The notes below the pieces were generated by a model that was not told the origin of the DNA, searched no databases, and was given only the letters and a program-made list of their open reading frames with translations. A stretch of 64,000 nt of DNA from Bilabrum cf. latius (lineage: Eukaryota). The position numbers and the translations under genes were made by a program. The stretch is taken from assembly GCA_965178125.1 (NCBI GenBank), contig OZ237739.1, positions 868,001 through 932,000 on the forward strand, read 5' to 3'. Each line of letters starts with the position of its first letter. Position 1 is the first letter of the stretch. Positions 19,741 through 63,504 of the stretch are shown one piece after another.

Positions 19741-22700
19741 ATGGCATCTGTTGACAGGCTTCGGGTGGTCCTTTTATTTGCGGTGCTCTGTTCGCTAGTA
19801 GCAGTCGTTTGGTTTGGGGCCACGTCCGTTCAGGTAAGAACGCGGGAGCAGGAAGCGCCACTTTCTTGCACCAATAATATACAGTTGGTTTCGTAGCACG
19901 GTCAAATCCGACATTGCAGGACTATGAAGATGCCGCTGCAAGTGTCCAGCGTGGGTTTAAGCGGGCTGAGGAATCTAGTGGGACAACGATGGAGACTGCG
20001 GTACCCGGCACGGAACCGAGTATATTGGCGACAGGAAAAGGATTAAGCTCGCCTCATGGCGGCCATCTGGCTACCATTGATATTGCGAAAGAGTCCTCAA
20101 AGCAGATAGGTTCATCAGCACACAGTTACCTGCTGTCACCTCGCCAGCAAAACGATCTAGAAATGATCCTAAATGGCGCCTATTCACCGCTAGAAGGATT
20201 CATGGTCCGGTATCAGTACAGATCTGTGCTAGATCGGATGCGACTCGGGCCAGAAGATGATGCAACCCTATTTCCGATTCCGGTGACACTGGCAGTTGCA
20301 CGCAGCGAGGCATCCAGAATGTACTTGGGCCAAACCCTGCAGCTTCTTGATAGCAATCGTAGGCCGCTTGCCAGTATGGATGTCCAGGACAAGTTTTCAC
20401 CTGACCTATTGGAAGAGGCGCGCCTCGTGTATGGAACTGACGATGCCCGAAAGCACCCGGGCATACTGGATGCAACTGGCTCCTCCTGTGGCCACCACTG
20501 GCCAAGTACCGGCTCTGAACGGACGGCGTTCACCAGCAACAAATGCACCTTAAGTGAAGATCAGTCATCAAGTCGCTGGAGCAGCCAGCCTTCAGCTCAG
20601 TTGCTGCAAGACGTTGTGTACGTCGGGGGCAGAGTGCAGTCAGCCGAGTCACCGCGGCACTTCGATTTCCAAAGAGACCGACTTGGACCCCGGTAGGTCC
20701 GTGAGATGGCTGCGAGCAAAGGATGGACAGGAATGGCGGCTATTCTGACCAGAAGTCCACTCCTGGGCCCGCAGCTCTCAATCCTGAGGCATGCTGCCTC
20801 TCTTTCGGGCGGGGGTGCTCTAGTGCTGGCCACTGGGGGAGAGCCAGCTGCATGCAGCCGAGCCTCTACTTTGCCCTATGCCGTAAGAATGCATTGCATC
20901 AGGGAGGCACTCACGGAAACCGGCGCGGTTCTGCTAGAGCCCGGCACGATTGCTGTGCCGCCGCAGGATGACGAGCCAGCTAGCTCGTCACAAGGTGCAA
21001 CGGAGGGTCCCATCTAGAGCACCAGCGCGGAAGGGGAATCAAACTAGATCTCCAATGAAGGTGATGCTTCCAGGAAGGAGCCACGCAGCTCTTTAGGTCC
21101 GCTGACATCTGGGCAGCAGGGCCGATTGACCCGAGGCGCTGCCGGGTTGCAACCCAACGCTAGCGAGCACGCAAGAAGGAGCCTTGCCGCCTCCCCACCA
21201 CACCGAGATGATGCCAGCAGCAATCTTGGCAAGCCATTGGGAGCCAGGCCAAGCTCTTTCAGCAGTCACGCGCGCCAAGGTTAGGCACTCGAGGCGATAG
21301 TGTCGCTGCTTCCGCTGGCTGGACGAGCTGCGGGACCCAGAGCAGCGCTGTGGCACATGATCATCATGAAGAATTTTGGTGCCACGCACGTCGTGGTAGG
21401 CAGGAACCACGCTAGCTGCCAGCTAGGAAGTGCTGCATCTGCATCTAAGCGCGGTCACGATTCCGAGCAGCACGGCTTCTACGGACACTACGACGCCTAC
21501 ACTACGGCTGTGGCGTACTCTGGGGAGCTCGGCCTCTCCGTGATAGGGGCCAGAAAGCTGCTGTGGGTGCCGAGGCTAAACTCTTTGCTACCGGCCGACC
21601 TTGTGTCTGCGCGAGAAAAAGTTGAGTATATCAGTGAAAGCGAATTTAGGGAGATGCTTGCTCTCGGGAAACCCGTGCCACCGTGGTTCTGCCCACCAGG
21701 GGTATTCAAGCTCCTGCGAGAAGCGCAGCCGCCAAGGTATGAGAGAGGAACGCTCGTCTTACTCACAGATACAGGGGATGGGCTGGGCCGTGCTTTGGCC
21801 ACCACAGTGGAAAGCATCATGACTGGCATAGTTGGGCATAAGGGCTCGCATGCAGTGGTTCGTTCTCCTACGGACCATTTTGCAAGTTCGATGGGTCATG
21901 CGTGGGGCCCGGAATGGAACCCAGTAGACGGGTGTCAACCGGCAGTGTCCCGTTCCGTGTTTACTGGGACTCAAATTGCAAAGCATGGATCCGTCGTGCT
22001 GGTCGCCTCGAGTGCTGGGTCTGATGCTGCTCTGTAGCACGCCCGATTTACCGCCACGCATGCTGGCGTCGGGTTCTTTCACGCACACGTGCTCCCATTG
22101 GCCGGTAACTGTACCGGCCAGAATTCAGCGGTCACCCCTGGTTTATCGTGGTATGAGTGGCCTGCATCGCCTGATGTTGTCTTGGATCCATCTGTCGTGA
22201 GCCGATTTCGAGCAGCTGCTTCTCTCGCGGGAGCATTGCTGAGTCACGGCTGGGTTCGCTCTGCTGCAGGCCCGCATCCCTCAATGCAGACCAAGCAGGC
22301 GCAAGAGACTAGCGTACTCGCGAAGGCCTAGTCCAGTTGGGATAAGCTCATGGAGCCGAGCTCTGCAGAGGGTACAGCACCGAGTGCGACGGGCACACCG
22401 GAAAGACTTGGTGTTCTTGGCAACACCGCCTTGAATGACAGCACACCGGCCTCTTTTATGAGTGACAAAGCGGTGGTAGAGCAGCACACCAAAGGCCGGA
22501 ACGGAGTAGAAGCAATGAGCTCGTACGCTTAGCTAGACAATTTCCAAGGCGTGTGGTCGATTGCAGGCTAGCCCGAGTAGTATCATACTGGTGATGAAGT
22601 GCCACTCCTCAATAGCTTCGGGCGGCCCAGTCGGGCACAGTGGATTTCTCGCCTGTGCAGTAAGCAAGGGCAATTTGTTCTGTCTAGATTAGGGTCGTTT

Positions 22701-23978
22701 GATGCCGAAGTCGATTTGCTGTTCGGGGCCGGACTCCACCGCATGGCCGGTGCCTTGAAGCAAGCCGCAGTCATTGCAGACTCTACACGATCGCAATCAA
22801 AGTATCCTGCTGTCATCGAGGTTCCCAGCTGGACCGTAATAGGGTTAGAGGGCGCCGTACTATCTTTGGAGGCCGAAATTTCCGCAGCTTCGGAGGTAGG
22901 AGGCTCGGCTCGATCAGCCATCCTGAGGTACTTGCGCTTGCCTTAGGCTTAGAATGCTACAGGTGGTGCTAGTAGCGTAGCAGATGTATTCATGCACGCT
23001 GCAATTCAGAGTGGATAGTACCACCGAGATGTGGATCCGTGGCATTGGGTCGGTGCTTCCAGTGGTGTGACTGGGTCTGTCCCAACTGGCAGCAAGGTGG
23101 TGGTCGCTCGAGGCATCTTATCGTTCGTACGCAGGGTGATGCGGGGTGATGATGAGCACAGCGCGGCGATTGGAGCCATAGGCGATATTAAGCAGTCGTA
23201 CGCCGCCAGTTTCGCGCCTTCTTCCTGTGGCAACAAAGCCGCAGACCAACAACAGGCGTTCCAATTGCTCGGTCCATTTTCGTCATTATCACCGGCTACA
23301 ACTTGGCGAGATCAGGTTATTGGCTCCGCTCAATCCGCGCGGTCATTCGCATGGGACTTGCAGAATACCAGCATGCAGATCGGGGCATCTTCGGCACCAG
23401 CGGTAGCGCTGGTCATCGGAGCTCGCTTGTTGCCATATCTCGATTCCATCCTGCTCATGCAGCCGTGCGCGAGCGCAATTTTGGCCCAGCCTCATTCATA
23501 GGACAGGAAGCTGGTCCGTGCGGTGCTGGACGCACGGGGCGACCTTCTGGCAGCGAGCCACCGCAGGCCCAGCAGCCCTGGATCTTCAGCTGCCGCTCGC
23601 CACCTTGCTGCAGGTGCTTCACCGTTCGACAGCAGATCGCAAACGTCACAGGTGGAGCCCCATACGCCTGCGCGTGATGACGAGCAGGCCGCTGAAGGAG
23701 CCGAAATGTCCTTGCTCGAGCCACGTGTTGCACCCGCACATGTGCCAGCAGCAGGCTCAACTCGCGAGGAAGGTCCTCACCAGGCGGCGGGTGGGGCGGC
23801 AGGAAATGGCGATCGCACGTAGTAGTCGGGTGAAGATGCTGCAGTTTCTGAGGCGAAGGAGTACATTGAGAGGTATCGCGCGCACCAAGCATGGCTCCAT
23901 TGGCGCCACGGGTCGAGGGTGCGGATCGAGGAGACAGTCGCTAGTACGGTGTCTGCGCTCCGAGAGATCGTTCAATGA
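19741..23978 (+). CDS. Membrane-anchored ATP sulfurylase-like / APS kinase-like / putative sulfotransferase-like fusion with degenerate motifs, ~1383 aa
   Basis: Exon 1 (19741-19833) encodes a signal anchor; intron at 19834-19919. Motifs PHGG, DLEMILNGAYSPLEGFM, FPIPVTL, AGPRAALWHMIIMKNFGATHVVVGRNHA and ISESEFREML..G..VPPWF. Eight ORF fragments lie in one frame, joined over TAGs. Ends TGA. Confidence 0.82.
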
Positions 23979-27026: not shown

Positions 27027-27651
27027 GCTGTTTTCGAGTCAGTATATGAATTTTATAATCAGCAGCAACGCTGTGTAATACTATGCTGAACCAGTCGCCT
27101 GAAAGGACTGCAGGCTTCGTCCAAAAATCTTGAGCACGGTTGCGAATGGTTTTGCACCAACGAACGACTTTTAAATCACATTTCTTTTCGCTACCCCCCG
27201 CAACGACGAACAGAAAGGTTCTGGAGTCGATAACTCGAAGCGAGCAGTTTAAACTCATACTAAACCCGACTTTGGTACGATTCGGGTCTGAATTGACAAA
27301 TATCAGGCTTTTTAAGAGAGCTACAGTGTATTGCGATCTGCTTGCGAGATGCAATCCTCGAACGGAGGCAGCTCAGGCAAAGCCGCAGCCTCTGACAAGA
27401 AGACCCCAGTTAAGTTTGCCTGTGTGAGAACTCGTATTAGCTATTTTGAATAATTGCGACGAATCCGCGTGCACCTTAAGCTCGCGTTGCAAGCTTGTGC
27501 GCTTCAATTTGCCGAGTGACTGGCGCCGATGGCGAGGCCACTGGACGCATTGAGCCGAAGTACGCCACCGCCAAAGTGCACCTGTGCTCGCATAGAGCTC
27601 AATGCCGCTCACTGCGATTTAAGCGCAATTGATCAACGTCGATCGAAAGCA

Positions 27652-28737
27652 ATGATTGCGTGTGGCACTGGGCAAGTCGCAACTCTCCTGCGGGTGATTG
27701 CGCTTGGTACGGATCAGTGGTACTTGTGTGCCAGTTGCGCCGGGCCAGTCGCTTTTATTGCGGACATTTTCGTTTCATTTTCTAATTTCGTTTCGCAGGA
27801 GACGTGTCGGCGCAGGCGAACCAAGTGTGACGGAGGAAATCCATGCCGCACGTGCGCAAGGCTCGGCCACGAGTGCGTCTACAACCTAACGCGCAAGAAG
27901 CGCGGCCCCAAGGTGGGAACGCTCGCCCTTCTTTAGACAGAAGCGCGATTTTTACATTCCCAGCTTGAGAGAGCAGTGGAGTCCCTGCGCTTGCTGGAAC
28001 AGTTGAGCGTGCAAGATCCCGAGGTGCGCGCCAGACGCCTAGCAGCTGAGCAACGCGCCGGGGCGCCGATCGACAGTCTTGCCGCCGCTGCCGCGAAGGC
28101 TGTCGCCGCTGCTGCGAAGCAAGCAGCCACGCTTTCCACTGGGAAGCGAGGCAGCCGCAGCCGACGGTACTCGCAGGGTGGATCAGCGCCTGCCTCCGAC
28201 AGGCAATCGCGGGGCTCCTCGGTAGGCCGAGGGGGCACTTCCCCCTCGGCATCCTCGTCCTCAGTGCGGGGAGCAAGCGAGCGGATGGGGTCAGGAACCA
28301 TGCGCGAGAGCAGCACTGACTCGTTGCAGGCCACGACGGCCCTGAGCATGGGTTTGGGTGGCGCAGGCATGCTGCAGGCACCCAACCTCGGGGGGATCTC
28401 TGGCATGGGCATGGGCATGGGCATGGGCTCGGGCATGGGCAGCAACATGTCAATGGGAGGTGGGGACTATAGAATGGGTGCCTATCCGCAGGGAGGAGGC
28501 CCGTTTTCTGCACGAGGGCAGCAGCAGCAGCAGTTGCAGCCGCAGCCGAGCAATTGGTCCCTGTCTGGTCCCCACGGGGGCAGCACGCCATCCAACGGGG
28601 GCCTTGACTAGGTGAGGCCACCGCCCGTGCTTACCAACATGATGCCATTTGCTGGGGGGATACGTGCGCAGCAGTCACAGCAGCAGCAGCTCTAGATGCG
28701 CGAACAGCATATATAGTAGGGTGCTGACTTGCAAGCT

Positions 28738-28775
<38 letters not shown>

Positions 28776-31700
28776 GACTCCCCAGGCGAGCACTGTGTCC
28801 ATCCCCCAGGAGCAGGCGAATGCCTTAGGCTCGGATCAGCATGGGAAGCAGCCAACACAAGCCGGCGCACCCACTACCAACTCAGGCACCTCCGCTGAAG
28901 GCCTAAACTCGGGCGGGCTTTCCTCCTCCGTGGCACGAAGGCAGACCCCCTCACGGGCCAGCGATTCCACCGCTGAGCATCAGGGCTCGGGGCAAGCGCG
29001 GCAAAGTGCTCTAGTGCGCACCATAGCAGAGCCTGGCGTGCAGCAGTCGCCCCAGCGCCAGCCCGAAGGCCTCAGGCCGGCGCTGGCTCAGGGCTTGCCG
29101 CGCGAGCTGGTGGATGCCGGCCTGCTTCGTACCGCTTCGCGTGCGGTTGCAGCTCGGTATCTGCACGATAGTGCGCAGGGCGCCAGTCCTGATGTCAGCC
29201 CCAAGTCGGAAGGAAAGTCTTCCGGCAAGGACGGCGAGGACGATTCAGCCGAAGCGGCCTCACAGCTGGGTCACACACGTGGCGCTGCTGAAGCCGGTCT
29301 CGAAGACAGCGGCGGCATGCAGGGATCTAGAAGGCCGTCCAAACGCGCGCGTGTTGACACTGAAGCCATCAAGGTGCCACCGGTCCGCAGCAGAGGCGCG
29401 GATAAATCTTCGAGCGCACCCAAGACGTGGCTGCCGAGTCCGCAACTGCTGATGCACGGCTATCAGGCGTACTGCACGTTCATTCGTGCCGGGTGGCCAG
29501 GCGAGCTCATGTGCAAGTCGGCTATGGAAGCCGGTGCACGAGCGCTCGGCGAGGCCTGGAGCACGCAGGGCGGCAGTGCGTCCGGTGGCCTGGACAGCGA
29601 CAGCAGCGGCCAGATCACCAGCGAGAGCCAAGGGCAGTCGCTGGGGTCTGGCGGGGCGCCCGACGGGGGGAGCGAGGGCGGGAACGGCAGCAGTACGCCA
29701 GGGAATCTTACCGGCGCTAGCACCGGCCCTGAAGATGATGACGACGATGGTGGTGGTGGTAGCGACGACATGGACGAGTGGGGCAGCGACTACTCCGAGC
29801 TGAAGGTGAACATCCAAGACCTAGGGACACTCACCTTCGCGGAGGTGGCGCGGATTGTCATCGATTCGGCCCTCCCAGACCACCGGGGCATGCTGCCGCC
29901 AGGACAGATCGGCGAAGATAGCGGAGATGGCGAGGAAGCCACTGCTGGCACAAAGCAGGGCGGCGGTGCTCGCAAGGGACGCGTCTCGCACCGCAGTCCG
30001 CCTGCCCTGCTGTCCGCCGGTAACCTGACCAACCCAAGCACCGTTCTGGCCGCCACTGCCGCCTCTCTGGCCGCCGCAGCGCTGGGTCACATGTGCCTCG
30101 TGTTGCAGCGAAAGCACGCCGTTTGCAGCAGTCGGATGTCGATACTGGCCGAGAGCTGCTTGGCTGCCGCTGGCGAGTCGTGCTCCAGGCACTAGGTCTC
30201 GGCCTGCGCCCTGCTGGGGGTGTGGCTCGGCATGCGCGGCGATGCATTTAGGGCGCAGCTCTACATCGGTAGGGCTTGGACGGGGCTCACGGCCCTGAGA
30301 ATCTCGCCGAGCGGCGGGGGCCTGGGCGCCGCGGTGCTGTATCTGAGGAACATGTGGTGCCCGCAGCTCGGCTGGGTGCCACCTAGGCCTGGGGCTGACG
30401 TGGGGGTGTTCACCAAAAAGGGCATCGCCGCCCCGGAGCAGCACGCTGATGCACTGCTGGGCTCAGTGAGTGCCTGGAAGCAGCCCACCTCGCACCCGTC
30501 CAGCGCAGTGAGCGGTATCGTGCTCGCGCGCGCCAGGCTGTCCATTGCAGCTCGCGATCCCTTCGGCATGGGACGAGGAGCCATAGATGCGGGGGACTAG
30601 GATGCGCGCAAGCGCGCCATCCGGTCTTCGGATGGGCTCGGTCACGCAGTGGTTGCAGTCGCAGACGCTGAAGCCAATCCGTCCTCGTCGGCTTCCGCTT
30701 CCGCTTCGTCGTCATCCTCTTCCTCTGCTGCCGCAAGCGCTGCGGGCTCGAGCAAAGCTGCAGCGGAAGATTTCAACGCTAGCCGTCGGGGACAGGGCGT
30801 CGGCTAGAAAGAGGGACTGGCCGCAAGAACGTACGGCCGGATCGCCGAGCTGGTGGGGTCCTCCGGGGCCCTGCTCATGCAGAGCCGCACTGGGATGCTG
30901 CGGCCAGAGCTGTGGCCCGTGATTGAGGCATCTGTGGACGAGCTGGCGGGTATCCTGGCGATGCAAGGGCAGCAGCAGCTGCTCGCCAGCAACCAGGCGA
31001 ACCCTTCCATGCTGCTCGCCATGTTTCATCTGGAGGCGCTGGGAGCGTGCATCAAGGGCAGGCAGGACGAGGCCACTGCGGCTTGCATCGCGTGCGTGGC
31101 GGCCTTTGGTCGCTTGGCGCACCGGACCCCCGTCAGCCCTCACATATGTTTCGTCGCGCGCAGCGTGCTGCTGCTCCTGCTGCGGTTCCGTTCGGAAGGT
31201 GTGCACATCCCCAGCATCGAGGACGTCTCCAAAGTGCTGGGCGGCGCGCAGCAGATGAGCCCGCGGTGGAGCGCCAGGCAGCACGCCGTGTCGATGCAGG
31301 CGAGCCCCTCGCGGCTTGTGGACAACTTCGAGGCCCCGGCCCTGCACGTAGGCCTGGCGAGCCTGCCCAAGTCGTGGGCAGCCGTGAGGTCCACTGCAGC
31401 CTCGCAGCCCAGCTCACGGTCCAGCTCTGGCTCGCGAGGACAGTCTTCTTCGCGCAGTAGCCCCGGGACCGGCACTTGGTGGGAGGCGCTTCTGTGGTGC
31501 ATCCTGAGCTCGCAGGCGCGCATCTCGAGCGCGTGCATGGAGCAGCTGCAGGCCGCCATCGAGGAGGCCGGGCAGCGCGGGTGGGTGGTCCCGCCCATGG
31601 CTGCCCATTTATCGGAGGAATTCGACCGGGCCACTGAGGCAGCCATGCAGGCTGCCGCTGCTGCCATCCAGAGGCCTCGGGCGGGCAAGTCTTCTAAGAG

Positions 31701-32793
31701 CGGGCTGCACGACGCGCTGCAGGCGGTGCAAACGAAGGGCTAGCTGCCTTGCCTGATTGAACCGAGCGAGGAGGAATCCGTGGTGGTGATGCCTTCGCTC
31801 GCTCCTATCGTGGACGCGTCCCTCTCTCGTGTGCTTGCCATCATGCAGGCCAGATCGGTGTCCATGTCGTAGCGAGACCTGCTCGCATATCGTGGGTAGG
31901 ACACGGTAGACTCCTCGGCCGGTACCTCCATCGCTGGCAGCCGCGACTCGGCCCAGGACGATGGGCAGGCCTCGGCTCGCGCGGGCCTTCAACGTCGCAA
32001 ATCTTCCGTCAGTGGCACCCCTATCAACGCAGACGGCGGGGTCGCCTCGCCGCAGTGGCAGCAGTGGCAGCAGCCGATGGGAAACTCTGGCCCCGGTCCT
32101 TAGGGACACGCCGTTGGTCCTCAGGGACAGTCTTGGCCGTCGTAGGGGGGCGGCAGACCCGCCCTTGGAGGGATCCCTGTGTCGGGGGCAGGGCCAGGTA
32201 TGGGAGCCGATGTGGCAGCTGGCATGCAGTCGCAGGGCGGGCCCATGCAGCGGGCTATCACGATGAGCAGCCAAGGGCAGGGAATTGGTGTGGGGATGGG
32301 CGCGGCTGGGCGCACCTTCTCGCTTTTTGGCCGAAGGTCGGGCGGTTCTGGTGCCGGCGCTGGTGCCGGCGCTGGAGTCGGCGCTGGAGTCGGCATGGTT
32401 GGCAGCGGTCCGATGCAGATGCCGCTGCAGCAGCCGCACTATGGCCTTTAGCAGCCACAGATGGGCGGCGAGTGGCAGCAGCACCAGCGATACGGAGGCG
32501 GTGATATGTCACAGTCCCATCATGTTGGTGGAGTAGCTGGTATGTATGGATAGGCAGGTCCGTACGGGGGTCCTGCGCAACAGCAGCAGCCCATGCAGTT
32601 TCGCATGAACCCAGGCCCTGTACGAGGCGGGGGCATGATTCAGCAGCAGCCGTACCAGCAACCGCATTCGCAGATGCGGCAAGAGTTCACCCCGAGAGGT
32701 TTAACTCCTATGGCATGGCAAGGGCGGGGAGTGCCATCGCAAGATATGGGTGGTGATGCGACAACACCGATGAATCCGGCAGATCGGCAATAA
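27652..32793 (+). CDS. Zn(II)2Cys6 binuclear-cluster transcription factor with poly-Gln and Gly/Met/Gln-rich regions; first exon unresolved
   Basis: ETCRRRRTKCDGGNPCRTCARLGHECVY..KKRGP follows an acceptor at 27798. Seven ORF fragments lie in one frame, joined over TAGs. Ends TAA. Confidence 0.85.
28738..28773 (+). repeat. (CAG)12 poly-Gln microsatellite in a Gln-rich tract that also contains TAG codons
   Basis: Seen directly. Confidence 0.95.
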
Positions 32794-35424: not shown

Positions 35425-37457
35425 TCACGTGGAGCACTTGCCTCCCTCCTTGAGGCAGCATCCGCTCTGCTACGGTGTAAGCCCCTTGCAGTTCATGGCC
35501 TTGTAGTCCACCTCGTTGAGCAACGGGGTGCCTCTCACCAGCGTTGCGTTGTGCTCCGCAGCCGCTTGGGTAAGCGCCTTGATGATGTCCGGCCGGTTTG
35601 TCACGGGGCTGCGCTCCGCAGGGTCCACCTCCACGTCGAAGATGACGGGAGGGTCGTGCCACACGATCGGCTCGTGACCGAACCCCGTGTGCGTCCCGAA
35701 GTGGGCCTTGTACGCTGACATGTTGCCCGCGCCGCGAGCTGCCAAGAGGTGCTGCCCCCTGTAGTACATGAAGGGCTTCCGATTCACCGCTGCGTCCGCC
35801 TCGGCCTTGAGGGCCCTGCCCGTGACCACTGGGGTTCCATCCCGCGCGCCCTCCATGTCGGCCCAAAGGTCTTCTGCGGCTAGTCCTGATCCGATCCCGT
35901 GGCTCCGGGCAATTCGGCGCCTCGCTGCCTCCTGCCACGTCAGCCCGGCCTGTCTCGCCTCCGTCAGCTCGCCCCCCTCGGCACCCGCCCCAAGGAACAA
36001 CGCTGTGATGTCCACGCCGTCGTGGACCACCCCGCTGGGCATGCTGGCCCCTGCCAGAGACACGAACGTGGGGTAAACGTCCAGCGAATTGGCGTATGCC
36101 AGGTTCTATGTGCCTGCGGGCACCACCCCGGGCCAGCGCACGAGCCCAGGCACGCGGAACCCGCCCTCCCAGGTTGAGCCCTTGCCCAGGTCGTCCGTGC
36201 CGTAGGTGGACGAGAACCACGCGGCGGAAAACTGACCGACCTCCCCCGCCTGGTCCACGGAGATGGCGCGCCAACCGCCGTTGTCGGTGGTGTACACAGT
36301 CGGGACGTGCGCGTCCAGCCCGGTGACCGCGAGCGTGTCGAGGATCTGGCCCAGCGACCAGTCGTAGGCATGCATGGCGTCGCCGAAGTCGCCCCTGAGG
36401 CTGATCCCCGAGTAGTTGGAGGGGTAGAAGACCTGCTCGTGGGTGTTGTCCAGAGCGTAGTAGATGAAGAAGGGCACGTCCTCCCGAGAGCCGCCCGGGC
36501 CGTGGTCCCGAATGAACTGAGTGGCTGCATCTGTGTAGTTGTAGATGAGCTGGGTGTTGATGTCCACGTCGATCCCCAGCCTCCCCACGATGGTGTTGTT
36601 GTGGAAGAGCGGAATGGCGGGGTAGGACGGGGGGCCTTCGCAGTGGGTCACAGGGGTCCCCACGAAACTGGTGAAGCCTTGGTTCAGCGGGAGGAGAGTC
36701 GTTTCGCCGTAGCTGTAGCCGAGGTGCCACCTGAGAGGATGGTGGGTGGGTGGGTGGGTGGGGGGAAGATATGGCGGTGCGAGCGAGGGCAAGCGACACG
36801 TTCAGTACAGACCACTGCACGGCCCACGCTGGAATCCCATGCGATCTCTCACTTGGCCACGGCAAGCGTGTCGAAGCCAGCGTGCTACGAGAGGGTTTCA
36901 GCCACCGTGATTTCTTCAGGGGGTAGTCCGTTGACGGAGTTGGGGTGAAACACACGGTGGTCGCCCGTACGCGGCGGGATCGTCGTCAGGTTGTTGTACA
37001 CACCCGTGCGAATGGAGAGCCTGCTAGTCAGGACCGCGGCTCGCTGCGTGCGTAAGACTGGCCGAAAGATGCAAGGATCACTATGCAAGATCAACGAAAT
37101 AGTTGAGGCCGCACACGCAGGATGCTCACCGATGGGCTGCAGATGGAGTGGGGCGTCGACCACTGCCTGAAAAACATCCCCTCATTCAGCATCCTATTGA
37201 AATTAGGAAGATTGCCAATCGTGGGATCCTGGAACGGTTCATTCCCAGCATCTGCAATCATTCAAGTCGTGGTTATTGCTGCAACCTATCACAGATAAAC
37301 TATTCAAGCTAACGCCGACACTCTCGCAGATAGACTCACCATCAGAGTAGAACAGTATCGCTCCCTTAATGGGAGGCACATCGACACCATGCAATTTACT
37401 CGAGCAAACAATTGATATGCATGCCGCTAGCAAAGAAAGAGTGCGCATGGCCTGCAC
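35425..37457 (-). CDS. Secreted formylglycine-dependent (aryl)sulfatase, ~578 aa
   Basis: Signal peptide, YSDD, CSPS|RAAVLTSR signature, K|WHLG, TTDNG, GKGSTWEGGFRVP, Cys-rich tail. Introns at 37252-37339, 37044-37129 and 36731-36852. TAGs at 36885, 36106 and 35470. Ends TGA. Confidence 0.93.
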
Positions 37458-39173: not shown

Positions 39174-40792
39174 GATCGGCCTGCTTCGGAATGCTAGCGA
39201 GCAAGGTAGAGTGACTAAAATTAGCATATTTATCACGAGAACTCGCATGCACTCAATTTCTGGAGATCTCGCGAGGCGGAGCTGATGCAAAGTCCAATCT
39301 CAGCCGAGATCCGTTCGATTCGGTCTGGGCCTTCGGCACAGTCCAATCCATCAAACCGTACACAGCATAATGATCCAACTACTCAATGAAAAACAAATAG
39401 CGTGGCAAGCAACAGGAAAAGAAACAGAATCACCCACTTTCTCGGCTTCGGTTTGGGCGTGCGTTGGGCCAGGTCGCTCCGATTGGTCGCACTCGGTCGC
39501 AACCAATTGAGTTGGTTGCAACCGCCGAAGACCACGAAGAGGATTCAAAGAGGATCCATGGGGCCATGGGCCGTGGGGCAAAGCGAATTTACTCGCAAAC
39601 AACTGGCAACAAGGCCAATGCACTGATTCAGTGTATGAATTGTCGGCCACCGACGCTTTGAGGCAGCCGCGGGGGCTATTCTGCCGGTGGACCTCATCGC
39701 AACATGGCCCGCACGCAAGTCACCCTGCCCGCACTACCAGATCCGTGCTGACCCCCCCGTTCCAACCGCCAGCTCGGTGCTGACTCCCTCATGCACGCAG
39801 CTGAAGGCCAGCACCAAGAGTCCCAGGGCCTGCAGGGCACCCTGCGCGATCCAGCGGCCGGGCCCGCAAGTGCGGCTGGGTGCACTGCACGACAGGTTCC
39901 ATTGTTCCCTCAGTGCGCCGAGATCTGGCCTCGAGCCCCCCTGGACCCCAACGGTTTGCTTTCCACTGCCCAAACCCCTACCGTGAGCCCGGGCCCGTCC
40001 CACTCCCATCCCACCTGGCATCGCCCCTTGCTGCACCCTGGTCCTGATCCTGATCCTGGTCCTGGTGCTATCCTAGACACGCTACTGCCACCCCAGCCAA
40101 CAGCACCCCGCAATCCGCAATGTACGCCCACAGCGCCACAGCTGCCCAGATCACTCGCTGCAGCACCCGCCCCCCACACCCGCCAGTTCCCCTCTCACCC
40201 TCCCTCTCACCCGCCATATCCCCTCTCACCTAACTACTCCCCCCCGAGCATGCACCCGAGTCTTCAGTGGCCACAGGCAGCATGGACTGCACAGAGAGAG
40301 ACAGGTCGACTCGAGCTTTAAGCAGGTGCTCAAGCGGCACACTTTGCTGGCAGGAGAGCGCGTGGATGTCGATAAGCACATGTCGATCGCGACGAAACGA
40401 ATAGTAGAATACTCGGATAGCCTTCACGGCGATTCTTGTCGCGTGCAGACCTCCCGAGATCTCATGGGCGCGCCCATTGGCAGCGCAGTGCCGGTGCCTC
40501 CCATTGCCGATGCGAAAGGCCGGTCGAGAGCCGGGCAGGAGTCATGGGTGCCCGGTCCGTGGGCGGGGCGGGGGCGAGGACGGGGGGTGGAGCTCCTCTT
40601 CCTCCACGACCGCCACCACCACTGGTCAATCGTCATCATTGCCTAGTAGGGCGTGACTTCGAATCGGTGCGAAGAGATGAATTCCACACCGTGCTGGATT
40701 CATCATTTGCCAAATCTGGTTAATACAAAGGTTTACAGCGGACATTTGGCAGTTTAGCCGGACGCAACGGATCAACATCCCCTTCGGACATC

Positions 40793-43000
40793 ATGGAGTA
40801 GACTTCGTAGCCAACATCAGCATCTGAGTTTCCACTGAGAAAAACTGTGATTATCGCAGCTGTAGTGTGGATAAACTCGTTTTCCACCCTTGTTACGGCT
40901 CCATTCTTGCCATTTATGGTCCAGGACATGTTCGGTGGCAGTTTGAAAGACGAAGAAATAGGGTTCCGATCTGGCTTTGTTGAGGCTTGCTACCAGGTGG
41001 GGCAGGCTATTGCCTCATACTTATGGGGTAGTTTCTCAGATGTGCACGGAAGGCGCCCTGCACTGCTGATGGGGTTGCTCGGGACTGCGGTATCCACTGT
41101 TGCGTTCGGAATGAGCAAGTCCTTCGGTGCCTTATGCTTCATCCGCTTCGTATGGGGTGCACTGAACGGGAATATTGGCGTTTCGAAGAGTGCACTTAGT
41201 GAAATTCTGCCTCAGGAGCATCAGGCCCGGGGTTTTGGCTTTATTGGCATGGCTGCCGGTTTCGGCCGCCTCCTCGGTCCAGCGTTAGGTGGGATACTCG
41301 CCCATCCTGCAGAGAGTGGCGTAGCTGCCTTCGATACCGCATTCTTGCGGGAATATCCATACGTACTGCCATGCATAATCAGCAGCTGCGTGACGTGCGT
41401 AACCTTGATTTGCTGCTACTTTGCGATCGAGGAGACGCTCGTCTCAGCACACTCAGGGTGGTGGAACAATTGGATGAGGGCACCCGGTTGGGGGTGCGGG
41501 GCCGGTGCCGGTCAGGCCCCGCAGGAATCTGCATCTATGCCAGGTAAAGGGGACTATAGCAGGGTACATGGCGGATCAGTGGGCGCATCTGGGCATGGGC
41601 GACGCATGGGCACCGGACTGGAACTGGTGAACGGGTCCAGTAGTGAGGAGGAGGACGATGGATCCGTGGTCGATGAGGGTAACGACTAGGAAGGCTTCCT
41701 AGTGCAGGGCAGGAGAACAATAGCCGCTTCAGCTGCACCGCGAACTTGGGCTCAGGGCCGTTAGGCCGGGTCCAAGAGTCGTGGTGGTGCCAGATACGCG
41801 CGCGCTGGGGAGGACAGCAGCGACGAGTCGATCGAGGGCGGTCTGGTGCTGCTTGACGACCACGATGGCGGACAAGGGCCCGAGGATGGTGCGATCCAAG
41901 GTGCCGCTGCAGGTTTGGAGGAACAAGGGGTCAGGGAACAAGGGGTCAGGGAACAAGGGATTAGGAGGGCCATCACCGCAACCTAGCTCGCTGCAGGGTC
42001 GGACAGGCGTTCGGCCGCCGCCCCCGCCCTTGCAAGAGGGCAGGGGCCTCGACTTGCCGGCCCTACACGAGAGAACCGGGGTCAGGACGAGGGCGATGAG
42101 GACGAAGTAGAGGAAGGCCAAGGCAGCGCGGGCGCGTGCGAGCTGCTGAGTCGGCGGCGGGTATTCGCGCCCGCTGCCCTCTACGGGGGTCTTGCCTTCG
42201 TGGCTCTGGCTGGGAACGAGGCCCTGCCACTGCAGGCACTCAACGATGCACAGCACGGCGGATTCGGGTTCAGGGCGAGGGACATCGGGCTGTGCATCAC
42301 GCTGGTTGGTCCGGTGCTGCTCATCTATCAGATGCTCGTGTACCCCAAGGTAGTGGAGGCGATGGGACTGCTGGGGTCGACCAACGCCGCCCTCATCTGC
42401 TTCTCCCTCTCCCTCGCACTCACGCCTTGGCTGGGCTTGCTGGCGCCCTATTCGAGCTGGGTGCACTGGACCGGGCTCATGGCCGTAATCGTGCTGACAA
42501 CCGTGTGCAGGGTTACTGCCTTCATCAACACGTTCCAGCTAGTCGCCAATGCGACCTCATCGGCCAAGGAGAGGGGCAAGGTCAACGGCATTGCCCAGTC
42601 GTTTGCTGCTGCTGGGCGCGTGGTGGCACCGCCGTTCGGCACGATGGTATTTGCGTACTTTGCGGGCCTGAACAGGGGCTGGCCCTTGAACTGGCATGCC
42701 ATGTGGATCATGCTCTCCGTGGCTGCCCTCGGCGTGCTGGGCATCGCTCGCACGGTCCCAGAGGAGAACGAGAGAGCCTACCTTGAGGGCAAGAGCGGCA
42801 AGGGCAGGGGCGGTGCAGCTGGAGGGGGATCCACCAAGACGGCGGACGGCGGGGCCCCGGAATCGTCCGGTTAGGAATCGGAGGACCTGAGCGCGAGAGT
42901 GGAAATGTCACGGGTGACAATCTCCGAGTCCAGGCGCAGCAACAGCAGCGATGAAGAGCAACCTAGGCTCGTCGAACGGTGTGATGTAGATAGCGACTGA
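40793..43000 (+). CDS. MFS transporter (DHA1/ZIFL-like) with a long central loop, ~735 aa
   Basis: WGSFSDVHGRRP motif A, GALNGNIGV, LLGPALGG and EYPYVLPC. A second 6-TM half lies in the same frame. TAGs occur only in the termini and the loop. Ends TGA. Confidence 0.92.
41921..41958 (+). repeat. 15-bp tandem repeat (GAACAAGGGGTCAGG x ~2.5; EQGVR)
   Basis: Seen directly in the MFS loop. Confidence 0.85.
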
Positions 43001-43654: not shown

Positions 43655-45262
43655 TCAGTTGCGGCCTTTTCTGCGCCTGCGCAGCGACTCCCGCTCCTTG
43701 TTAATGTCCTACAAGCCCATTATCACGGTTTTGCTCCTGGTAGCCTTACCTTTGCTGTGGCTGCCACCGACAGCCGGCGAGAACAAGCTTCGTGCCCTCA
43801 TCACCCTGTCAGGTGAAGCAAGGGAATCCCCAAACACCGCCGCCGCCGCACTCGCGTGGCGGCCGCGTCTCGGCAAAGACGCACGCACCCGCGATTTCTG
43901 CTTGAGCACGCGACGCATGCGCCGCTCGAAGCCCCGGCGGCCTGTCCGGAGCCCCAGCTCGGCCTGCTTGATGCGACCCTCCCACTACCGGAGCACTTGC
44001 TCGGCTGCTCGCTCGCCGGCCAGCAGCAGCCCCTCTTTCCCGCCTGCATGCAGGCCCACCGTCTCATAATCGTCTTCGTCGAGAGATTCGCCTCCGGATC
44101 CGTCACCAGGCCGCCTGGACAGCAGTGCCTGCTGGCCTAGGGCAACCCGAACGGACCAAGCCGCCGCGGAAGCCGCGATGGAGCCGGCCGACGGCAGCGG
44201 CACCCACTCACCGGCATGTGCACCCATCTCAACGTCCTCGTCTTCATCATCATCCTCATTCTCGTCCTCGTCCTCGTCCGCATCGATGTCGTCGTCCATT
44301 GCGGCAACTGCATCGTCCGGCTCGTCTTGCTGGTCCGTCATATCCGCAGCATCAGCACCAGCACCACCATCACCATCACCGTCATCTTCTTGCATGGCTG
44401 CGGCGCCACCATTGTCACTGGTACCCTGCAGCTGCACCGTGAGGCCGCCGCCGCCGCGCCTTTTCTTCTTTGCGGGGGTCGCCTCGTTCCCGCTGCTGCC
44501 ATCTGCCGCCTTGCTGCCCACATCGGCAGAGATGCCACCGCGACTGTCAGCGGCATCTGGCTGGAGGCCCGACGGAGTGGCCTCGGTTTCTTCGGTAACG
44601 CTGCGATTCGTATCAGCCTCCAGCTCGTCACGGCCCCGCTTGCGACCTGCACGGACCTGCGACTGGCTCTTCGTGACACTTTCGCCCAGGGAGGCCGCTG
44701 CTTGAGTACCAGGCTCACCACCATCGTTGGCATCGTTTGCTTCGGCTGCGCGTCTCCCATCGACTTCTTTCTCCTCTTTCTCCTCTTCTTCCTCCTCCTC
44801 CTTCTCCTTCTCCTGGCCCATGCTGGGCTGCAGGGAACTGCCCGCAGGTGTATCGCCTGGAGGGCTCGCTTGCGTTGGTGACGCCCCACCCTCCTGATAG
44901 TCTTCCTTCGCGTCCTGCTCCTTGGCCGCCAAGACTGGCTTGCTGGCATCGTCATTGGTGTCACCGGAAGCAGCGGGAGCTCCCTCTGGGGATGCATCCG
45001 GCTCCCTCACTGCATCATTCCCAAGGTCCTTGCCCTCCTCTTCCTTCTCCTCATCCGGCGCACCGCCGATCCCGAGGCCCATCGCAAACGCGTCTTCCAC
45101 GGATAGGCGGAAGTTGCGCAGCAGGCGCTCGAAGTGCTGCCTGGCCACGGATTCGTCCCCATCCCCGCGATTCATCGCTGCCTCCCGCACTCGCTCCACT
45201 GTGGCGATCTGGCGGTCAGTGTAGGTCTTGCCAGAGGGCTACTTGCTCGAGGCAGCTGCTGT

Positions 45263-45309
<47 letters not shown>

Positions 45310-47488
45310 TCGAGGGCCTCGCAGGGGGAGCACCTGTTGTTGCCTGGTCCAATTGTGCAGGTGTACTTCTGGGCTGCTCAGCGTCTTGTGTTGCGGCACC
45401 CTCCGACTCTACCTTGCCTGCACCATCACCGGCGCCACCGCCAGCTGACGCGTCGCTCTAAGTTCTAGTTCGCTTGCGCCGAGCTCTGAGTGCCAGCGCA
45501 GCAGCACGCATCGCCGATAGCGAGTCGTCGCTGCCGTCGCTATCCTGCGAGCGTTCTTCCTCGCTCGCCTGTTTCTGCTCAGTTCCTTTCTTCGCCTCAT
45601 CCTCCTCCTCCTCCTCTTCTCCATCCTTCACCTTGTCCGCATCTGTTTGCTGGCTGCGTGCACCCCGTCGGCGCACCCCGAACCTGCCTGCCGGCATATG
45701 CATCACGTCATCCTCTTTGTTTTGGCCCTGGTCCTCATCCGCGTCGTCATTTTCATCTTCCATCGTGCTCATCATCGCAGCACTCCCCGCAGCTCCCTTG
45801 GAATCGCCCCCCTCCTCCTTGTCTCCCTGCTCTTGCGATCCAGCGCCTTGCCAGCCGTCATCGTCCGCCTCCTGGTCGTCTCCTCCCTGTGCTGCCCAAG
45901 CAGGCGAGCCATTAGGTGTCTCAGCATCACCGCCATCCTCACCATCCTCCTCATCTTCCCCATCGCCATCGCTGCCGCCGTCTTCCTCCTCGTCCTCGCC
46001 CTCCTCCTCATTTCTCCTGACTTTCTCGTCTTCATCGCTTTGCTCATCCCCACCTCCTGAGACTGCCCAGCTTGGACCAGCATCTTCCACCTCATCCGCA
46101 TCCTAGGCCTCGCCTCCGCCCTCGCCCATACCCTTACCGGTCGCACTGTCCTTCGCTGCCTCCTGTCCAGTTAGGCCCCAGGCAGCGCTCTCGTCGGCAG
46201 CGCCAGCATCCGCGCTGGGAATCCAGCCGTCATCCCCAGCGTCACCTTCATTCGCAGCATCATCACCCCAGGCATCTGCTGCGTCCACTCCATCGGCGAC
46301 CGTGACTCCAGTCCACGGGTCTGCTGCAGCGGGAGCCGATGCAGCATTGGAGCCCTCGGTCCCTGCACCCCACGCGCTTGCGCCTGCCCCATCCGCCGCT
46401 TCATCACCGTCCCCGTCAGTATTACGAGCCCCACCGCTGCCTTGGTTCCACCCATCATCTCCACCATGCCCATCCCCATCCCCATCTTCATCTTCATCTT
46501 CGCCGCCGTCGTCTTCATCCTCGGCAGCTTGACCAGACGCCCACGCAGGCTGCTGGTCCTCGTCACCGTCCCTCGCCCTCGCCTCCTCCTTTTCCTCTTC
46601 GTCCTCGTCCTCAGCATCATCACCAGGATCCTAGTCTCCTTCATCTTCTTCGTCGCCGTCATCCTCGTCCTTGCGTTCGCCGTTTTCGTCTCCATCGTTC
46701 TCCTGCTCTGCACCACCGCCAGGCTACTCGCCCTCCCCACGGTCAGGAGCCGATCCGATGGCATCGTCATCCCCCCCTGTCGCCGCAAGCGCCCAATCGG
46801 GCTGATCTCCGCCGGAATCGAGCTTCTTAGAAGGAGAATTGCTAGATCCGAACCAGCCGTCGGGATTCTCGTCTGATGTTGCTTGCTCATTGCCAGCGAC
46901 AGCAAGCGCAGGTGCAGGCGCAGCTACGACCGAGGATGGTTCAAATGCATCAACCTTGTCAGAAGAGTCAAACGAAAATCCACCCGAGTGCGGCTATTTA
47001 AAGTCCCAATCCTACCCTGAGCCTTGCTTGGTGTCTTCGGCTTGCGCAGCTAGTCCGGTGTTGCTGGCGTTGGCAGTGCCATCGCTCCAACCATTAAAGG
47101 CATCACTGCCGTCCTTCTACTCAACCGTGAGGTTTGTTGATCCAAGGTTCCAGTCTGTTTGTTGTCCGCTATCGCCTGCAAACATAGATGAAGGTCAGGA
47201 CACTACAGCATGATGCCGCAGCTCCGTAGTCAAGTAAGCTAGCGGTGGCACAATCTCACCAGTGTTTCCCCAGTCCAAATCAATGGGCGCGTCTGTAGTT
47301 CCATCTGCAGCACCCGTTTCGGCGTTGACATTCTCTGCACTTTCTGTTGTGTTTGGATCACCGGCAAACGATGCGAAACTCAAGCTCATTTCAGCTGTAT
47401 CATTCAGGACAGCACTAGGCTCAGAATCGTTACCGTCCGCTCCACTGCCACCAAAATTCCCCCAACCATCGGTTCCGTCATCAGCCAT
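43655..47488 (-). CDS. Highly acidic low-complexity protein with periodic Trp motifs, ~1249 aa
   Basis: ORFs 47195, 46103, 45458, 43985 and 43709 share one frame. The 84-nt intron 47176-47259 removes a TGA. Basic C-terminus; ends TGA. Confidence 0.75.
45263..45310. repeat. (GATGAC)n hexamer microsatellite encoding poly-Ser on the minus strand
   Basis: Seen directly. Confidence 0.92.
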
Positions 47489-59900: not shown

Positions 59901-60003
59901 GGTGGCGAAGGATGGCATCGCCAGGCAGTTGGCTCAGCTCCACCGCCACGGAGCGGCGGCTGCATCTGTATCGGCCGCTGAGCGCAATGAAATATTGAAT
60001 TGA
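47962..60003 (+). CDS. Giant (~4013 aa) largely disordered protein with an AP2/ERF-like domain and an EF-hand-like helical domain
   Basis: Twenty ORF fragments in one frame; 19 end in TAG and the last in TGA. AP2-like GVYKR..WRWRAVV..IGDFDDQASAAVAHDVAV..TNF at ~51900-52115. Helical domain at ~49310-49740. Start uncertain. Confidence 0.82.
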
Positions 60004-60173
60004 GGGCATGAGTGCCATTCGAATCGCCACGCTCCGATGCGGGTTTGTGCCCAAGGCTGCCCCAGAGCAGGTGCCACGGTCCCAACTCAGCGAACCACCA
60101 CTATGTAGGTTCCCTACGAACTTCTCAATACCACGTCTGCTGATGGGCCTTCCACTTCAACATTTCTAAGTTC

Positions 60174-63100
60174 ATGGGGAGAATTACCGTGTTTATCAAG
60201 CCTGATTGTAAGTATTGCGATAAATTGAAATCAATTTTGATTCAATCAATCAGGACGCACGTAATTCCCGCCCAGGAAGCCAGTAAAAGGGCCCAAGCTG
60301 ACAGAGCTTCGAATGCCGCAAGCGGCATAACCAGCGAACCAGAAGCGGCTGCTGGTACTGAAACCGAAAAACCAACGGCGTTTTATGGAATCTAGCTTGT
60401 CACCATCGACGTCTCGTTGGATACCGCCAGGTCGAAGCAGTGTATGCAGCTGTCAGGCAGCCGGACGGTGCCGCAAATGTTTTTCCAAGATGAGTACATG
60501 GGAACAGATAGAACAGTCGGTATTTTTGCGTAGTGTGGAACACTTCGAGCCCGTCTGTTGCAGTTAGCAAGGTGAGATGGATAGCACAGTGGTGCAGAGC
60601 CGCGAGGTGTTTTGCTCATCCACAACTCTTGGTGCGGATTTCTTCCTTCCTCGATTTTGCCATTCGCAGCGAGCCCCACATGGATACATTTCCCCCTGCT
60701 CCACTGGCAGAGGTTGTGAAGGTTTCGGAAGACTCTGCGTTTTCGAGCTAGCCGACTCTGCGGCAAGTTCGAGGCCTGCGGCAGTGGGGCTTCAAGACCG
60801 TCATCAACCTGTCCCATCCGCGCGAGCAGAGCTTTCTGCGCTCCGAGGGAGTCGTTTGTCGCAGCACTGGCATCGATTACTTATCAATACCGCCGTCGAA
60901 AGCCCCCGTGTTCCCCCTGGCCCACGTCGAAGTGGACCTGCTTCCAAGCATCTCGATGCCCACCCCACCTAGCTTGCCGGGCACGCGAGACCCCGGCACG
61001 TCCTCTACTGCATGTGCCAAGGCTTCCAAAGATGGAAATGCTTCAGCATCTACGCTCACGGCCCCATCAGGACCAAGAAGTCGCGTGCACAGCGCAGGTG
61101 ATGTGAGCTCCAGCCCGCCCAGCCCTGGCGCAGCGTCGGACGGGCGATTAGAGGGCTCACAGCAGGCAAGTGGGCATTGCATGCCACCAAGCGGAGAGCC
61201 AGCTCACCACCCGACACCAAGCGGGGAGCCGTCCACTCGATGCACAGGGTCAGAAGGCCCCGCTGCCACCGACCGATGCGGAGGATCGGCACTCCAAGAT
61301 ACAGTGGCACGCGTGGACGGAGGGAGCTGCACAGGTCCAGCTCGATTGGGCGGTCAAGAGCAGCGAGATATCGCTGGAGATAGATCCATAGCAGGCCCAG
61401 GAGCGCAATGTGACAGTGATATCAGAGAGTCGTGTGACGAGGGGGCAGCAGGCCGTGCAATTGACGTGTCCCGGGACCCGGCCGGAGGGAGCGATTCGGG
61501 CCCAGGGCCAAGCGTTGGAGTGGACAACCTCCCGTGCACAACACCCGAGGGGGACACGTGCACCGGGTAGGATGCAGTGTCCGGGCAGTGCGTCAAGATG
61601 GAGGAACACAGACAGCTGACAAGGGGTGTCACAGTGACGCAGATCGATTCCAGTACCCCGATCGAAACTGACCACCCGATTCCCGCGCTCCAATGCAGCC
61701 AGAGCAACCCGTGTCCGGCCCCGGGGGAAGTGCCGCCGTCCGCCGTTGTAAAAGCACTGACGCCAGTTCCCGCAGTGCCTGTGCGTGGTGAAGCACCCAC
61801 TCGTGCTCCCGCGGTCTCGACTCGGTCCTAGCTGGAAGCCGGCCTTCGCGGCGATTTGGCTGGGCCTTCTGGCAGTACATGCAAGCGACCCGCTAGCGAT
61901 GGAAACGAGTCGGACAGCTGCTCTGGTCCCGAGTGCGCCTCAGAAGCCCATGCCTTGAGCCAAGACGGGCGGCCTACCACACCGGGTGCCTCAGAAGGCG
62001 GCTACGCGAAGGCTGACCTCGGCGGTCAGGACAGTTCCTGCGAGGCTCGGAGCCTGCATGGTTCAGGGCGCTGGGACCGGGACACAGACGCATCCCATGA
62101 AGACAAGAGCGCCCGGGGCAAGGTAGCCCGAGGTGACGCTGCATCTCCGGCCCTGCGGGCAGGCATGCCCGAGCTGACACCGCTTGCGGGACCGCGTGCC
62201 ATGTCGGGGCACGAGGACGATCTCGCGCTGCCTGGCGCTGCCTCGCTCGCCTTGCCACCGGCCGGTGACGGTAGCAACGCCCAGCCAAGCGAGTACGCTC
62301 GATCGGACGGTGGTCGCGAATCCCAATCCCCCGGGGGTCAGGCGCAGCCTTCCTCCAGATAGGACGCCCGATGGGGCAAGGGACTCCCGCACGGGCTGCT
62401 GCAGCGAGGCGTGGCTCACGCAGTGTCCAGGACCAGCTCGTATGGAGCCAAGCAAGTGGCAAGGGCGGCGGCGGGGGCGGGTCCATCGCCCCAAACATCG
62501 ACTGCAACGCCACCTGGCCCGAGTGGCAGTGACGTGCGCAGGCAGCGGAGTCGCTCTGTTGGCGAGCTGGGCCAGGCAGCCGCCGCGATCGGGCTGCGGA
62601 TGGGTCGAATCCGGCACCGAGGGGCTGTCATGGAGGTGCCTGCGGACGAGTATGCCCTGAGGAGCGGGGCCGTTGCGTTCGGTATCTCTCTCACCGAGGC
62701 TGTGCGGAGGCCGCAAGGCCCAAGCAGCGAAGGCGGTGCCGTGGGTGCTAGTACTGGCGTGTCTATAAAGGACCGCTTCGGCAGAAGCACAGGCGTGGGC
62801 GCACGAGTAGTGGCCTAGCCTCAAGGCGATCCGACTGGCCTACTGGCCCCTACTGGGGACTCTGGTGCTCCTAACACCCATGCGGTGGCCGAGGGCTCAC
62901 AGGGTGAAGGTGAAGGCTCCCTTGCCGGTGGAGGCTCCGAGGGCGGGTGCACCGAGGGCACGGGCACCAGCGGCGGGGAGCGGGCCACTTTGGCCACCAG
63001 CATGACGGAAGTGTCCAGGGTGTGGGAGTTTGCCGCTGGGGATCTAGGGGGGCGCGGTGATCCGGGGGACCAGGCGTGGACGGCTGCGTGGGCGGAGCGT

Positions 63101-63427
63101 GTGCTGGAGCAGCTGGAGGCGGTGCCGAAGCCTGTCCTGGTCCACTGCCAGACGGGCGCGGCGGCGTGCTGCGTGTGTCTCCTGCGAGCCGCGAGGAAGC
63201 TTGGCGCCAAGCCGAAGCAGGTGCACAAGTGGTCAAGGGATCTGGGTCACTCGCTTGCAGGCCACAGCGACCTTGAGCTCGTCGTTTCCGAGATCCTCAA
63301 GCCAGCGAACCCCGAGATCCTCAAGCCAGCGAACCCCGCGACAGCCGAGATCGCTGCTGCCAGTAGTGATGCCTCTGACGCAGCCAAGAGACCTGCGACC
63401 GGAGTGCGCCCCGTGCAAGGAAGCTGA
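60174..63427 (+). CDS. Glutaredoxin fused to a split DUF442/PTP-fold (sulfurtransferase/phosphatase-like) domain, ~1051 aa
   Basis: KPDCKYC and TVPQMF (glutaredoxin). Intron at 60572-60669. SS(Q)PT..GFKTVINL..E..GIDYLSIP and, ~720 aa later, PKPVLVHCQTG. Ends TGA. Confidence 0.8.
63290..63337 (+). repeat. 24-bp perfect tandem duplication (EILKPANP x2)
   Basis: Seen directly. Confidence 0.92.
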
Positions 63428-63504
63428 TCTAGTGTTGTGTGGTATACTAATGCTGTGTTATCTGCCTGCATGGCCATGATTGCTTGCAGTTTGCAGACTG
63501 TGCA

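Follow-up and report, generated by a model that had tools for sequence, protein, structure and literature searches.

The stretch analysed here, 64,000 nucleotides of contig OZ237739.1 (positions 868,001–932,000 of the forward strand; Bilabrum cf. latius, GenBank assembly GCA_965178125.1), is hereafter called the window, and all positions are counted from its first letter. It contains long open reading frames (ORFs) with TAG codons in frame, among them a gene for a glutaredoxin–DUF442-like fusion whose TAG at 60749–60751 served as the anchor of an initial annotation, made from the sequence alone, that TAG most likely encodes glutamine. The guanine–cytosine (GC) content is 0.58–0.66 in every 4-kb bin and thus ~60% throughout. 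A Pfam scan of the frames, with TAG masked as X, recovered eukaryotic families: OST3/OST6, short-chain dehydrogenase, PUA_2 together with ATP-sulfurylase, fungal-type Zn2Cys6, ankyrin repeats, sulfatase, teneurin-like EGF, MFS, and glutaredoxin (Table 1). On the sequence evidence given below, the window is very probably GC-rich, intron-poor eukaryotic nuclear DNA in which UAG would be an ordinary glutamine codon and UGA (mostly) and UAA would serve as stops, i.e. a code that reassigns UAG only.

The longest stop-free frame of the window spans 538 codons in the standard code and 4038 codons when TAG is taken as sense. When TAA instead of TAG is made sense, the longest frame remains at 538 codons. 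In 15 long or domain-bearing ORFs (~16,800 codons), which were delimited by treating TAA and TGA alone as stops, TAG occurs in frame 150 times, and TAA and TGA do not occur. The two other frames of the same ORFs contain 46 and 70 TAA, 240 and 379 TGA, and 137 and 120 TAG, respectively. TAG is therefore equally common in and out of frame, while TAA and TGA are excluded from the coding frame; this in-frame TAG pattern exceeds chance. UAG amounts to ~0.9% of the codons (~1 per 110) and to ~15% of all glutamine codons. Among the 13 complete ORFs, 12 end with TGA and one with TAA, a count of retained stops that covers the window only, and UAA and UGA are absent in frame both from the ~16,800 window codons and from the 3193 codons of an orthologue, L001, described below. 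Because CAA makes up 28% of the CAR codons (CAA and CAG) in the window ORFs, these ORFs should contain ~60 in-frame TAA if TAA were synonymous with TAG; none was seen. In L001, where the CAA share is 40%, the expectation is ~29 TAA, and again none was seen. TAA does not act as a sense codon in this DNA: TAA-free frames of 4037, 3193, and 2776 codons are irreconcilable with any appreciable sense use of TAA. The code would therefore be one in which UAG alone is reassigned to glutamine, which corresponds to NCBI translation table 15; reassignment of both UAA and UAG (UAR) to glutamine corresponds to table 6.

The orthologue was obtained by scanning metagenome contigs of the Joint Genome Institute (JGI) with the protein of the giant 4037-codon ORF. 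The scan found one locus, L001 (10,793 bp, GC 0.557), in which positions 1215–10793 form an open frame of 3193 codons with 44 in-frame TAG, no TAA, and no TGA. To judge from this frame, the relative that carries L001 shares the code of the window. A MAFFT alignment of the two proteins, with TAG written as X on both sides, gave 3076 aligned pairs at 53% identity. Pairs were kept when the 14 flanking columns were at least 30% identical, and the two directions were pooled. The residues opposite TAG (n = 40) were Q16, E6, A4, K3, S3, G2, R2, D1, T1, H1, and N1, in addition to three TAG–TAG pairs; the 16 glutamines were encoded by CAG (13) and CAA (3), and leucine, tyrosine, and tryptophan did not appear at all. 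The initial annotation had proposed tabulating the residues opposite TAG against those opposite CAG/CAA and the glutamate codons. This comparison, run with L001, favoured glutamine: TAG is matched by glutamine in 40% of the pairs, CAG/CAA are self-conserved in 37%, and glutamate codons in 65%. TAG faces no broader a range of residues than CAG/CAA do. Of the 41 aligned TAG positions of L001, three are shared with the window, so that TAG and CAG/CAA evidently turn over freely between the lineages.

The same alignment bears on the view that the TAGs are not translated as such, because U-to-C editing turns them into CAG, because they belong to pseudogenes or introns, or because they are errors of the assembly. 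The in-frame TAGs are known here at the DNA level, which leaves room for this view. However, the TAG-rich frame has been kept in L001, which is 47% diverged and carries its own 44 TAGs, three of them at the shared positions. This conservation of the frame with separate TAGs rules out pseudogenes and assembly errors. Moreover, independent public sequencing runs showed no differences across TAG sites in the pieces listed, and the frames are open across all TAGs, so that splicing is not needed. We assign this explanation an almost negligible probability.

A likelihood test was built on the substitution table of the alignment itself, with a leave-one-codon-out control on the sense codons that have at least 25 observations. 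The control returned the right amino acid for 51 of the 52 codons; it failed for ATG, which lacks synonymous codons from which its pattern could be learned. TAG was assigned to glutamine, 29.7 natural-log units above glutamate, the runner-up, and the corresponding margins of the genuine glutamine codons were 25.7 (CAG) and 22.6 (CAA). The lead of glutamine over glutamate and lysine stayed at ~30 natural-log units at all quality thresholds tried.

Closer relatives gave a similar picture. A protein search with the giant ORF, which was swamped by low-complexity words, gave four hits among 8000 scored candidates. P0001–P0004, ORF fragments from the Logan assemblies, share 73–96% identity with the giant protein and span seven of the window TAGs, opposite which they have Q, Q, Q, E, Q, Q, and G. 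Three of the four fragments stop exactly one residue short of a window TAG; such ends are expected if a standard-code gene caller halted at a conserved TAG. The search with OST3 found one match, P0005, which is 68% identical and has glutamine opposite TAG 3254–3256 and glutamate opposite TAG 2708–2710. Since P0005 stays well conserved past both positions, these two TAGs are not terminators. The two proteins combined give Q6, E2, and G1. These five database fragments (P0001–P0005) are products of standard-code annotation.

The anchor TAG lies in frame in the context AFSS-TAG-PTLRQ. An exhaustive HMMER search with residues 1–100 of the DUF442-like domain, run against 1.84 billion representative proteins, yielded 41 homologues at E ≤ 1e-3, of which 40 were aligned; the remaining one, P0043, matched as six short stretches and was omitted. 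The column opposite the TAG belongs to a conserved AFSSQPT motif and contains glutamine in 35 of the 40 homologues, leucine in three, alanine in one, methionine in one, and glutamate in none, in good agreement with the initial annotation, which had placed this TAG at a conserved glutamine. The initial annotation had assigned the domain to the DUF442 type. Pfam found PF04273 (BLH_phosphatase, previously called DUF442) in four of 15 homologues (two above the gathering cut-off) and an upstream glutaredoxin domain in four, and the source of one homologue calls it a glutaredoxin/PTP-superfamily phosphohydrolase (DUF442); the window's own domain, on the other hand, has no Pfam match even at E ≤ 10. 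NCBI gives the label Symbiodinium sp. KB8 to a homologue with 47% identity.

The glutaredoxin ORF (60144–60575) lies directly upstream of the DUF442-like frame and in a different frame. Removal of the predicted 98-nt intron (Table 1) would join the two into a spliced product of 1051 codons with seven TAG and without TAA or TGA. For each of P0006, P0008, and P0011, a single BLASTP alignment crosses the 60572–60669 junction, and the domain order after removal of the intron is the same as that of known fusions of glutaredoxin with PF04273. Unlike that family, the window domain scores below every Pfam threshold and is interrupted by an insert of ~700 amino acids (aa). The C-terminal part of exon 2 shows 42–61% identity to the homologues. 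When the N-terminus of the gene was searched against shorter proteins, none of 204 candidates proved to be a match.

Table 1. Features of the window, with their in-frame TAG codons.
Feature	Position	Strand	Remarks
In-frame anchor TAG, motif AFSS-TAG-PT, DUF442-like (BLH_phosphatase-like) domain	60749..60751	+	Homologue column
Exon 1, glutaredoxin domain	60174..60571	+	Pfam Glutaredoxin; in-frame TAGs 60393 and 60531
Predicted intron, 98 nt, GT..AG	60572..60669	+	Connects the glutaredoxin and DUF442-like frames
Exon 2: DUF442-like N-terminal half, low-complexity insert (~700 aa), P-loop-like C-terminal half (VLVHCQTGAAAC)	60670..63427	+	In-frame TAGs 60749, 61568, 61829, 62360, and 62816; stop TGA
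Giant ORF, 4037 codons	47890..60003	+	36 in-frame TAG; TGA end; main source of the orthologue test
Coiled-coil ORF, 2776 codons	5319..13649	-	40 in-frame TAG, including DLE-TAG-TAG-YGE and RVR-TAG-QLEQ; TGA end
Zn2Cys6 (Zn_clus) protein ORF	27520..32793	+	15 in-frame TAG; TAA end
PUA_2 + ATP-sulfurylase-like ORF	19878..23978	+	15 in-frame TAG; Pfam
Acidic low-complexity ORF	43655..47194	-	10 in-frame TAG
MFS transporter ORF	40724..43000	+	6 in-frame TAG, all within hydrophilic segments; Pfam
OST3/OST6-family gene, C-terminal part	2534..3517	-	4 in-frame TAG; Pfam OST3_OST6, E = 2.1e-23
Sulfatase ORF	35425..36801	-	2 in-frame TAG; Pfam

At the sequence level, these comparisons demonstrated readthrough of UAG in conserved genes, whose homology persists beyond the TAGs, with a substitution pattern like that of CAG/CAA. 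The likelihood margin, the anchor column, and the closer relatives together bear out the initial annotation; by a wide margin, glutamine is the best-supported candidate meaning of TAG, and glutamate is the only serious rival. Several observations nevertheless weigh against glutamine. The statistical weight comes mostly from one fast-evolving gene pair. TAG 20694–20696 faces glutamate in the ATP sulfurylase of Penicillium and glutamine in that of yeast, and TAG 36106–36108 falls in a variable column with lysine, valine, and threonine in solved sulfatases. The sole DUF442 structure matched, 3gxg (E = 0.44), has leucine at the position of the anchor TAG. In the glutaredoxin exon, the 18 homologues compared at TAG 60531 include K6, Q4, and T3, and at TAG 60393 glutamate is found in eight of 17 homologues and glutamine in one, as the initial annotation had foreseen in its caveat that glutamate is not excluded at every site. 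Contigs from public runs were compared with the window over 43600–63500, where the relative in run X10 differs at ~7–10% of positions. The 40 listed of its 1526 differences fall in 37 codons, 14 with synonymous and 23 with non-synonymous changes, and one of them involves TAG: at 43685–43687 the window has TCG (serine) and the relative's contig has TAG. A classifier based on the composition of neighbouring residues placed glutamine outside its top eight candidates for TAG; it recovered 26 of 55 controls and also failed with CAA, which ranked ninth. Finally, scans of the window and L001 showed no tRNA gene.

Glutamate in place of glutamine would account for a part of these observations. It is the runner-up in the likelihood test, and it stands opposite TAG not only at 60393 but also in six of the 40 L001 pairs, at one of the seven fragment sites, at one of the two OST3 sites, and in the Penicillium ATP sulfurylase; the hydropathy of the context does not tell the two residues apart. 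The deficit of 29.7 natural-log units, in contrast, comes from a test whose control placed 51 of 52 codons correctly. Furthermore, the glutamate codons in the L001 alignment are matched by glutamate in 65% of cases and TAG in 15%, and the AFSSQPT column of the 40 homologues is free of glutamate. We therefore consider it very improbable that TAG encodes glutamate. A second possibility, that TAG has no single meaning, is improbable to a slightly lesser degree. Near-cognate tRNAs might mix glutamine with tyrosine, lysine, or other residues, or the reading might depend on context, with TAG still ending some genes. No cognate tRNA was found in the window or L001 scans, the residues opposite TAG are somewhat mixed, and ambiguous decoding would be invisible to comparative data. 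Mixed or inefficient decoding would, however, be very costly at ~1 TAG per 110 codons and 36–40 TAGs in single genes. Tyrosine and tryptophan are absent from the 40 L001 pairs, the TAG spread is not broader than the CAG/CAA spread, and all 13 complete ORFs can do without TAG as a terminator. A uniform reading as glutamine remains the preferred interpretation.

Further sites and contexts that the initial annotation had put forward for glutamine lie where it placed them, with the TAGs in frame. An internal repeat in the Zn2Cys6 ORF had been said to pair TAG with CAG; both copies, GGTCCTTAGGGA (32095–32106) and GGTCCTCAGGGA (32116–32127), are present and in frame, and they pair TAG 32101 with CAG 32122. 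The pattern GGTCCTYAGGGA has two matches, 21 nt apart, against 0.03 expected, and one of 100 shuffles reaches two, indicating that this mini-repeat is small but real. TAG 28693 and TAGTAG 28714–28719, which had been assigned to a poly-glutamine tract, lie within a glutamine-rich stretch. In OST3, where GL-TAG-NVP had been likened to LQNVP in yeast Ost6, the site itself was located: TAG 3419–3421 (minus strand) is inside the Pfam OST3_OST6 match. The other TAGs of this gene are at 3254–3256, at 2708–2710, and at one site further upstream. The contexts DLE-TAG-TAG-YGE and RVR-TAG-QLEQ, taken as fitting a polar helix-former, were found in the minus-strand coiled-coil ORF. The claim that TAG avoids the transmembrane helices of OST3 and MFS was also substantiated, as none of their 10 TAGs lies in a hydrophobic segment (top neighbour hydropathy, 0.18), and none of the 150 TAGs in all ORFs lies in a transmembrane-like context. 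The hydropathy of the neighbours is -0.61 for both TAG and Q, -0.62 for E, -0.43 for L, and -0.36 for Y; by this measure TAG resembles a polar residue and nothing more specific, with E and Q inseparable. Because the neighbour-composition classifier is without power, the context arguments (the glutamine-rich stretch, the coiled coil, and hydropathy) fit glutamine and are not probative.

A code of this type is already known and rare. Reassignment of UAG only to glutamine is described for the fornicate Iotanema spirale, the ciliate Protocruzia tuzeti, and two phyllopharyngean ciliate lineages (PMC5304391, PMC11687900). Like these, the window has UAG as a sense codon, glutamine at the corresponding positions of homologues, and UAA and UGA as stops. 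It differs in that it is 60% GC and intron-poor and carries fungal-type Zn2Cys6, OST3/6, sulfatase, and teneurin-like EGF genes. The window does not look ciliate-like, and nothing ties it to metamonads. Nuclear codes with UAR for glutamine are listed for many ciliates, Ulvophyceae, Hexamita, Streblomastix, and the aphelid Amoeboaphelidium protococcarum (PMC5304391, PMC11687900, PMC6299283), the last of which these papers credit to Karpov 2013. They share with the window the reassignment of a stop codon to glutamine, but differ from it in that the window has no TAA in its ~16,800 codons against the ~60 expected. The fungal-type domain raised the possibility of an Amoeboaphelidium origin; the Amoeboaphelidium assemblies have GC contents of 40.5% and 39.9% (PMC10608142, Table 1), and an origin from this genus was rejected on the difference between ~40% and 60% GC and on the fact that TAA is not sense. 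Other changes restricted to UAG, as given in PMC11687900, lead to leucine (the rhizarian exLh and some ciliates), serine (Scotinosphaera), and glutamate (an oligohymenophorean ciliate). The decoupling of UAG from UAA is common to these codes and the window. The codes with leucine or serine are unlike that of the window, in which leucine was found in none and serine in three of the 40 L001 pairs, both far below glutamine in likelihood. In full-text literature, subscription journals and supplements aside, we found no UAG-to-glutamine code described for any GC-rich organism outside the ciliates and metamonads.

The mechanism proposed for other UAG-only codes combines tRNA-Gln(CUA) with a weakened eRF1; tRNA-Gln(CUA) in Tetrahymena reads UAG and not UAA, and eRF1 is altered in Iotanema (PMC5304391). 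By analogy, the organism studied here would possess a dedicated tRNA-Gln with the anticodon CUA, which would pair with UAG and not with UAA, and an eRF1 that would lack efficient recognition of UAG. Scanning of the 64-kb window and of L001 gave no tRNA genes and no Rfam matches, and the window does not include the eRF1 gene.

This lineage may thus extend the group with UAG-only codes for glutamine by a new member. A more far-reaching scenario is that the window and L001 represent a GC-rich, intron-poor, Zn2Cys6-bearing lineage without an earlier description of a variant code, in which the reassignment evolved independently of ciliates, Iotanema, and Amoeboaphelidium and is older than the separation of at least two members, between which the orthologous protein is now 47% diverged. 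We offer this scenario tentatively and lean slightly against it. Nuclear codes that separate UAG from UAA are rare, and PMC11687900 lists few lineages with them. If the scenario is true, a GC-rich and apparently unrelated lineage would add one more independent origin, as well as an extra test case for how eRF1 and a tRNA with the CUA anticodon decouple UAG from UAA. In practice, standard-code annotation of this genome or of its relatives would break almost every long gene.

Some features of the individual genes were also noted. In the anchor gene, whose DUF442-like domain is of the PTP-fold type, HCQTGAAAC forms the P-loop, for which the family has the consensus HCxxGxxA. The CX5R motif carries an arginine, which, as far as the sequences indicate, seems to be absent across the anchor-gene family. 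Because the P-loop is without this arginine, the protein may not be a phosphatase. In the ATP-sulfurylase-like protein, which is 1366 aa long, AILTRSPLLGPQL stands at the place of AFQTRNPMHRAH in solved enzymes. The nucleotide-binding motif looks degenerate, and the protein may therefore be a non-catalytic paralogue. The OST3/OST6 match is split over two frames of the minus strand (2537–3977), with ORF 3045–3977 covering profile positions 6–77 and ORF 2537–3517 covering 76–290, which implies an intron or a frameshift between the ORFs. Sequence and two-sequence profile searches of the PDB found no Ost3/Ost6 chain. Distant PDB homologues of ATP sulfurylase, sulfatase, OST3, and DUF442 were tried as a test of the meaning of TAG and rejected, as their TAG columns are variable or unaligned.

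The giant protein contains a possible divergent AP2-type DNA-binding domain (51920–52060), which we regard as a lead. Look-alike clusters in an atlas score 0.80 and the single PDB match is the TEM1 AP2 domain (E = 0.14); Pfam gave no match to this region at E ≤ 10. At 44200–45600, in the acidic low-complexity ORF, contigs of many unrelated organisms pile up, with a summed depth of up to 4777 and many joints and loose ends, and read-based results for this part are therefore unreliable. The window also contains three recent duplications that are 97–99% identical: 7906–8450/8614–9158, 14382–15190/17778–18586, and 15970–16300/18675–18999. No difference between the copies of these three pairs touches an in-frame TAG. 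One of them is a tandem repeat within the coiled-coil gene, and the other two belong to a segmental duplication with a spacing of ~3.4 kb that includes a pair of bZIP-like ORFs.

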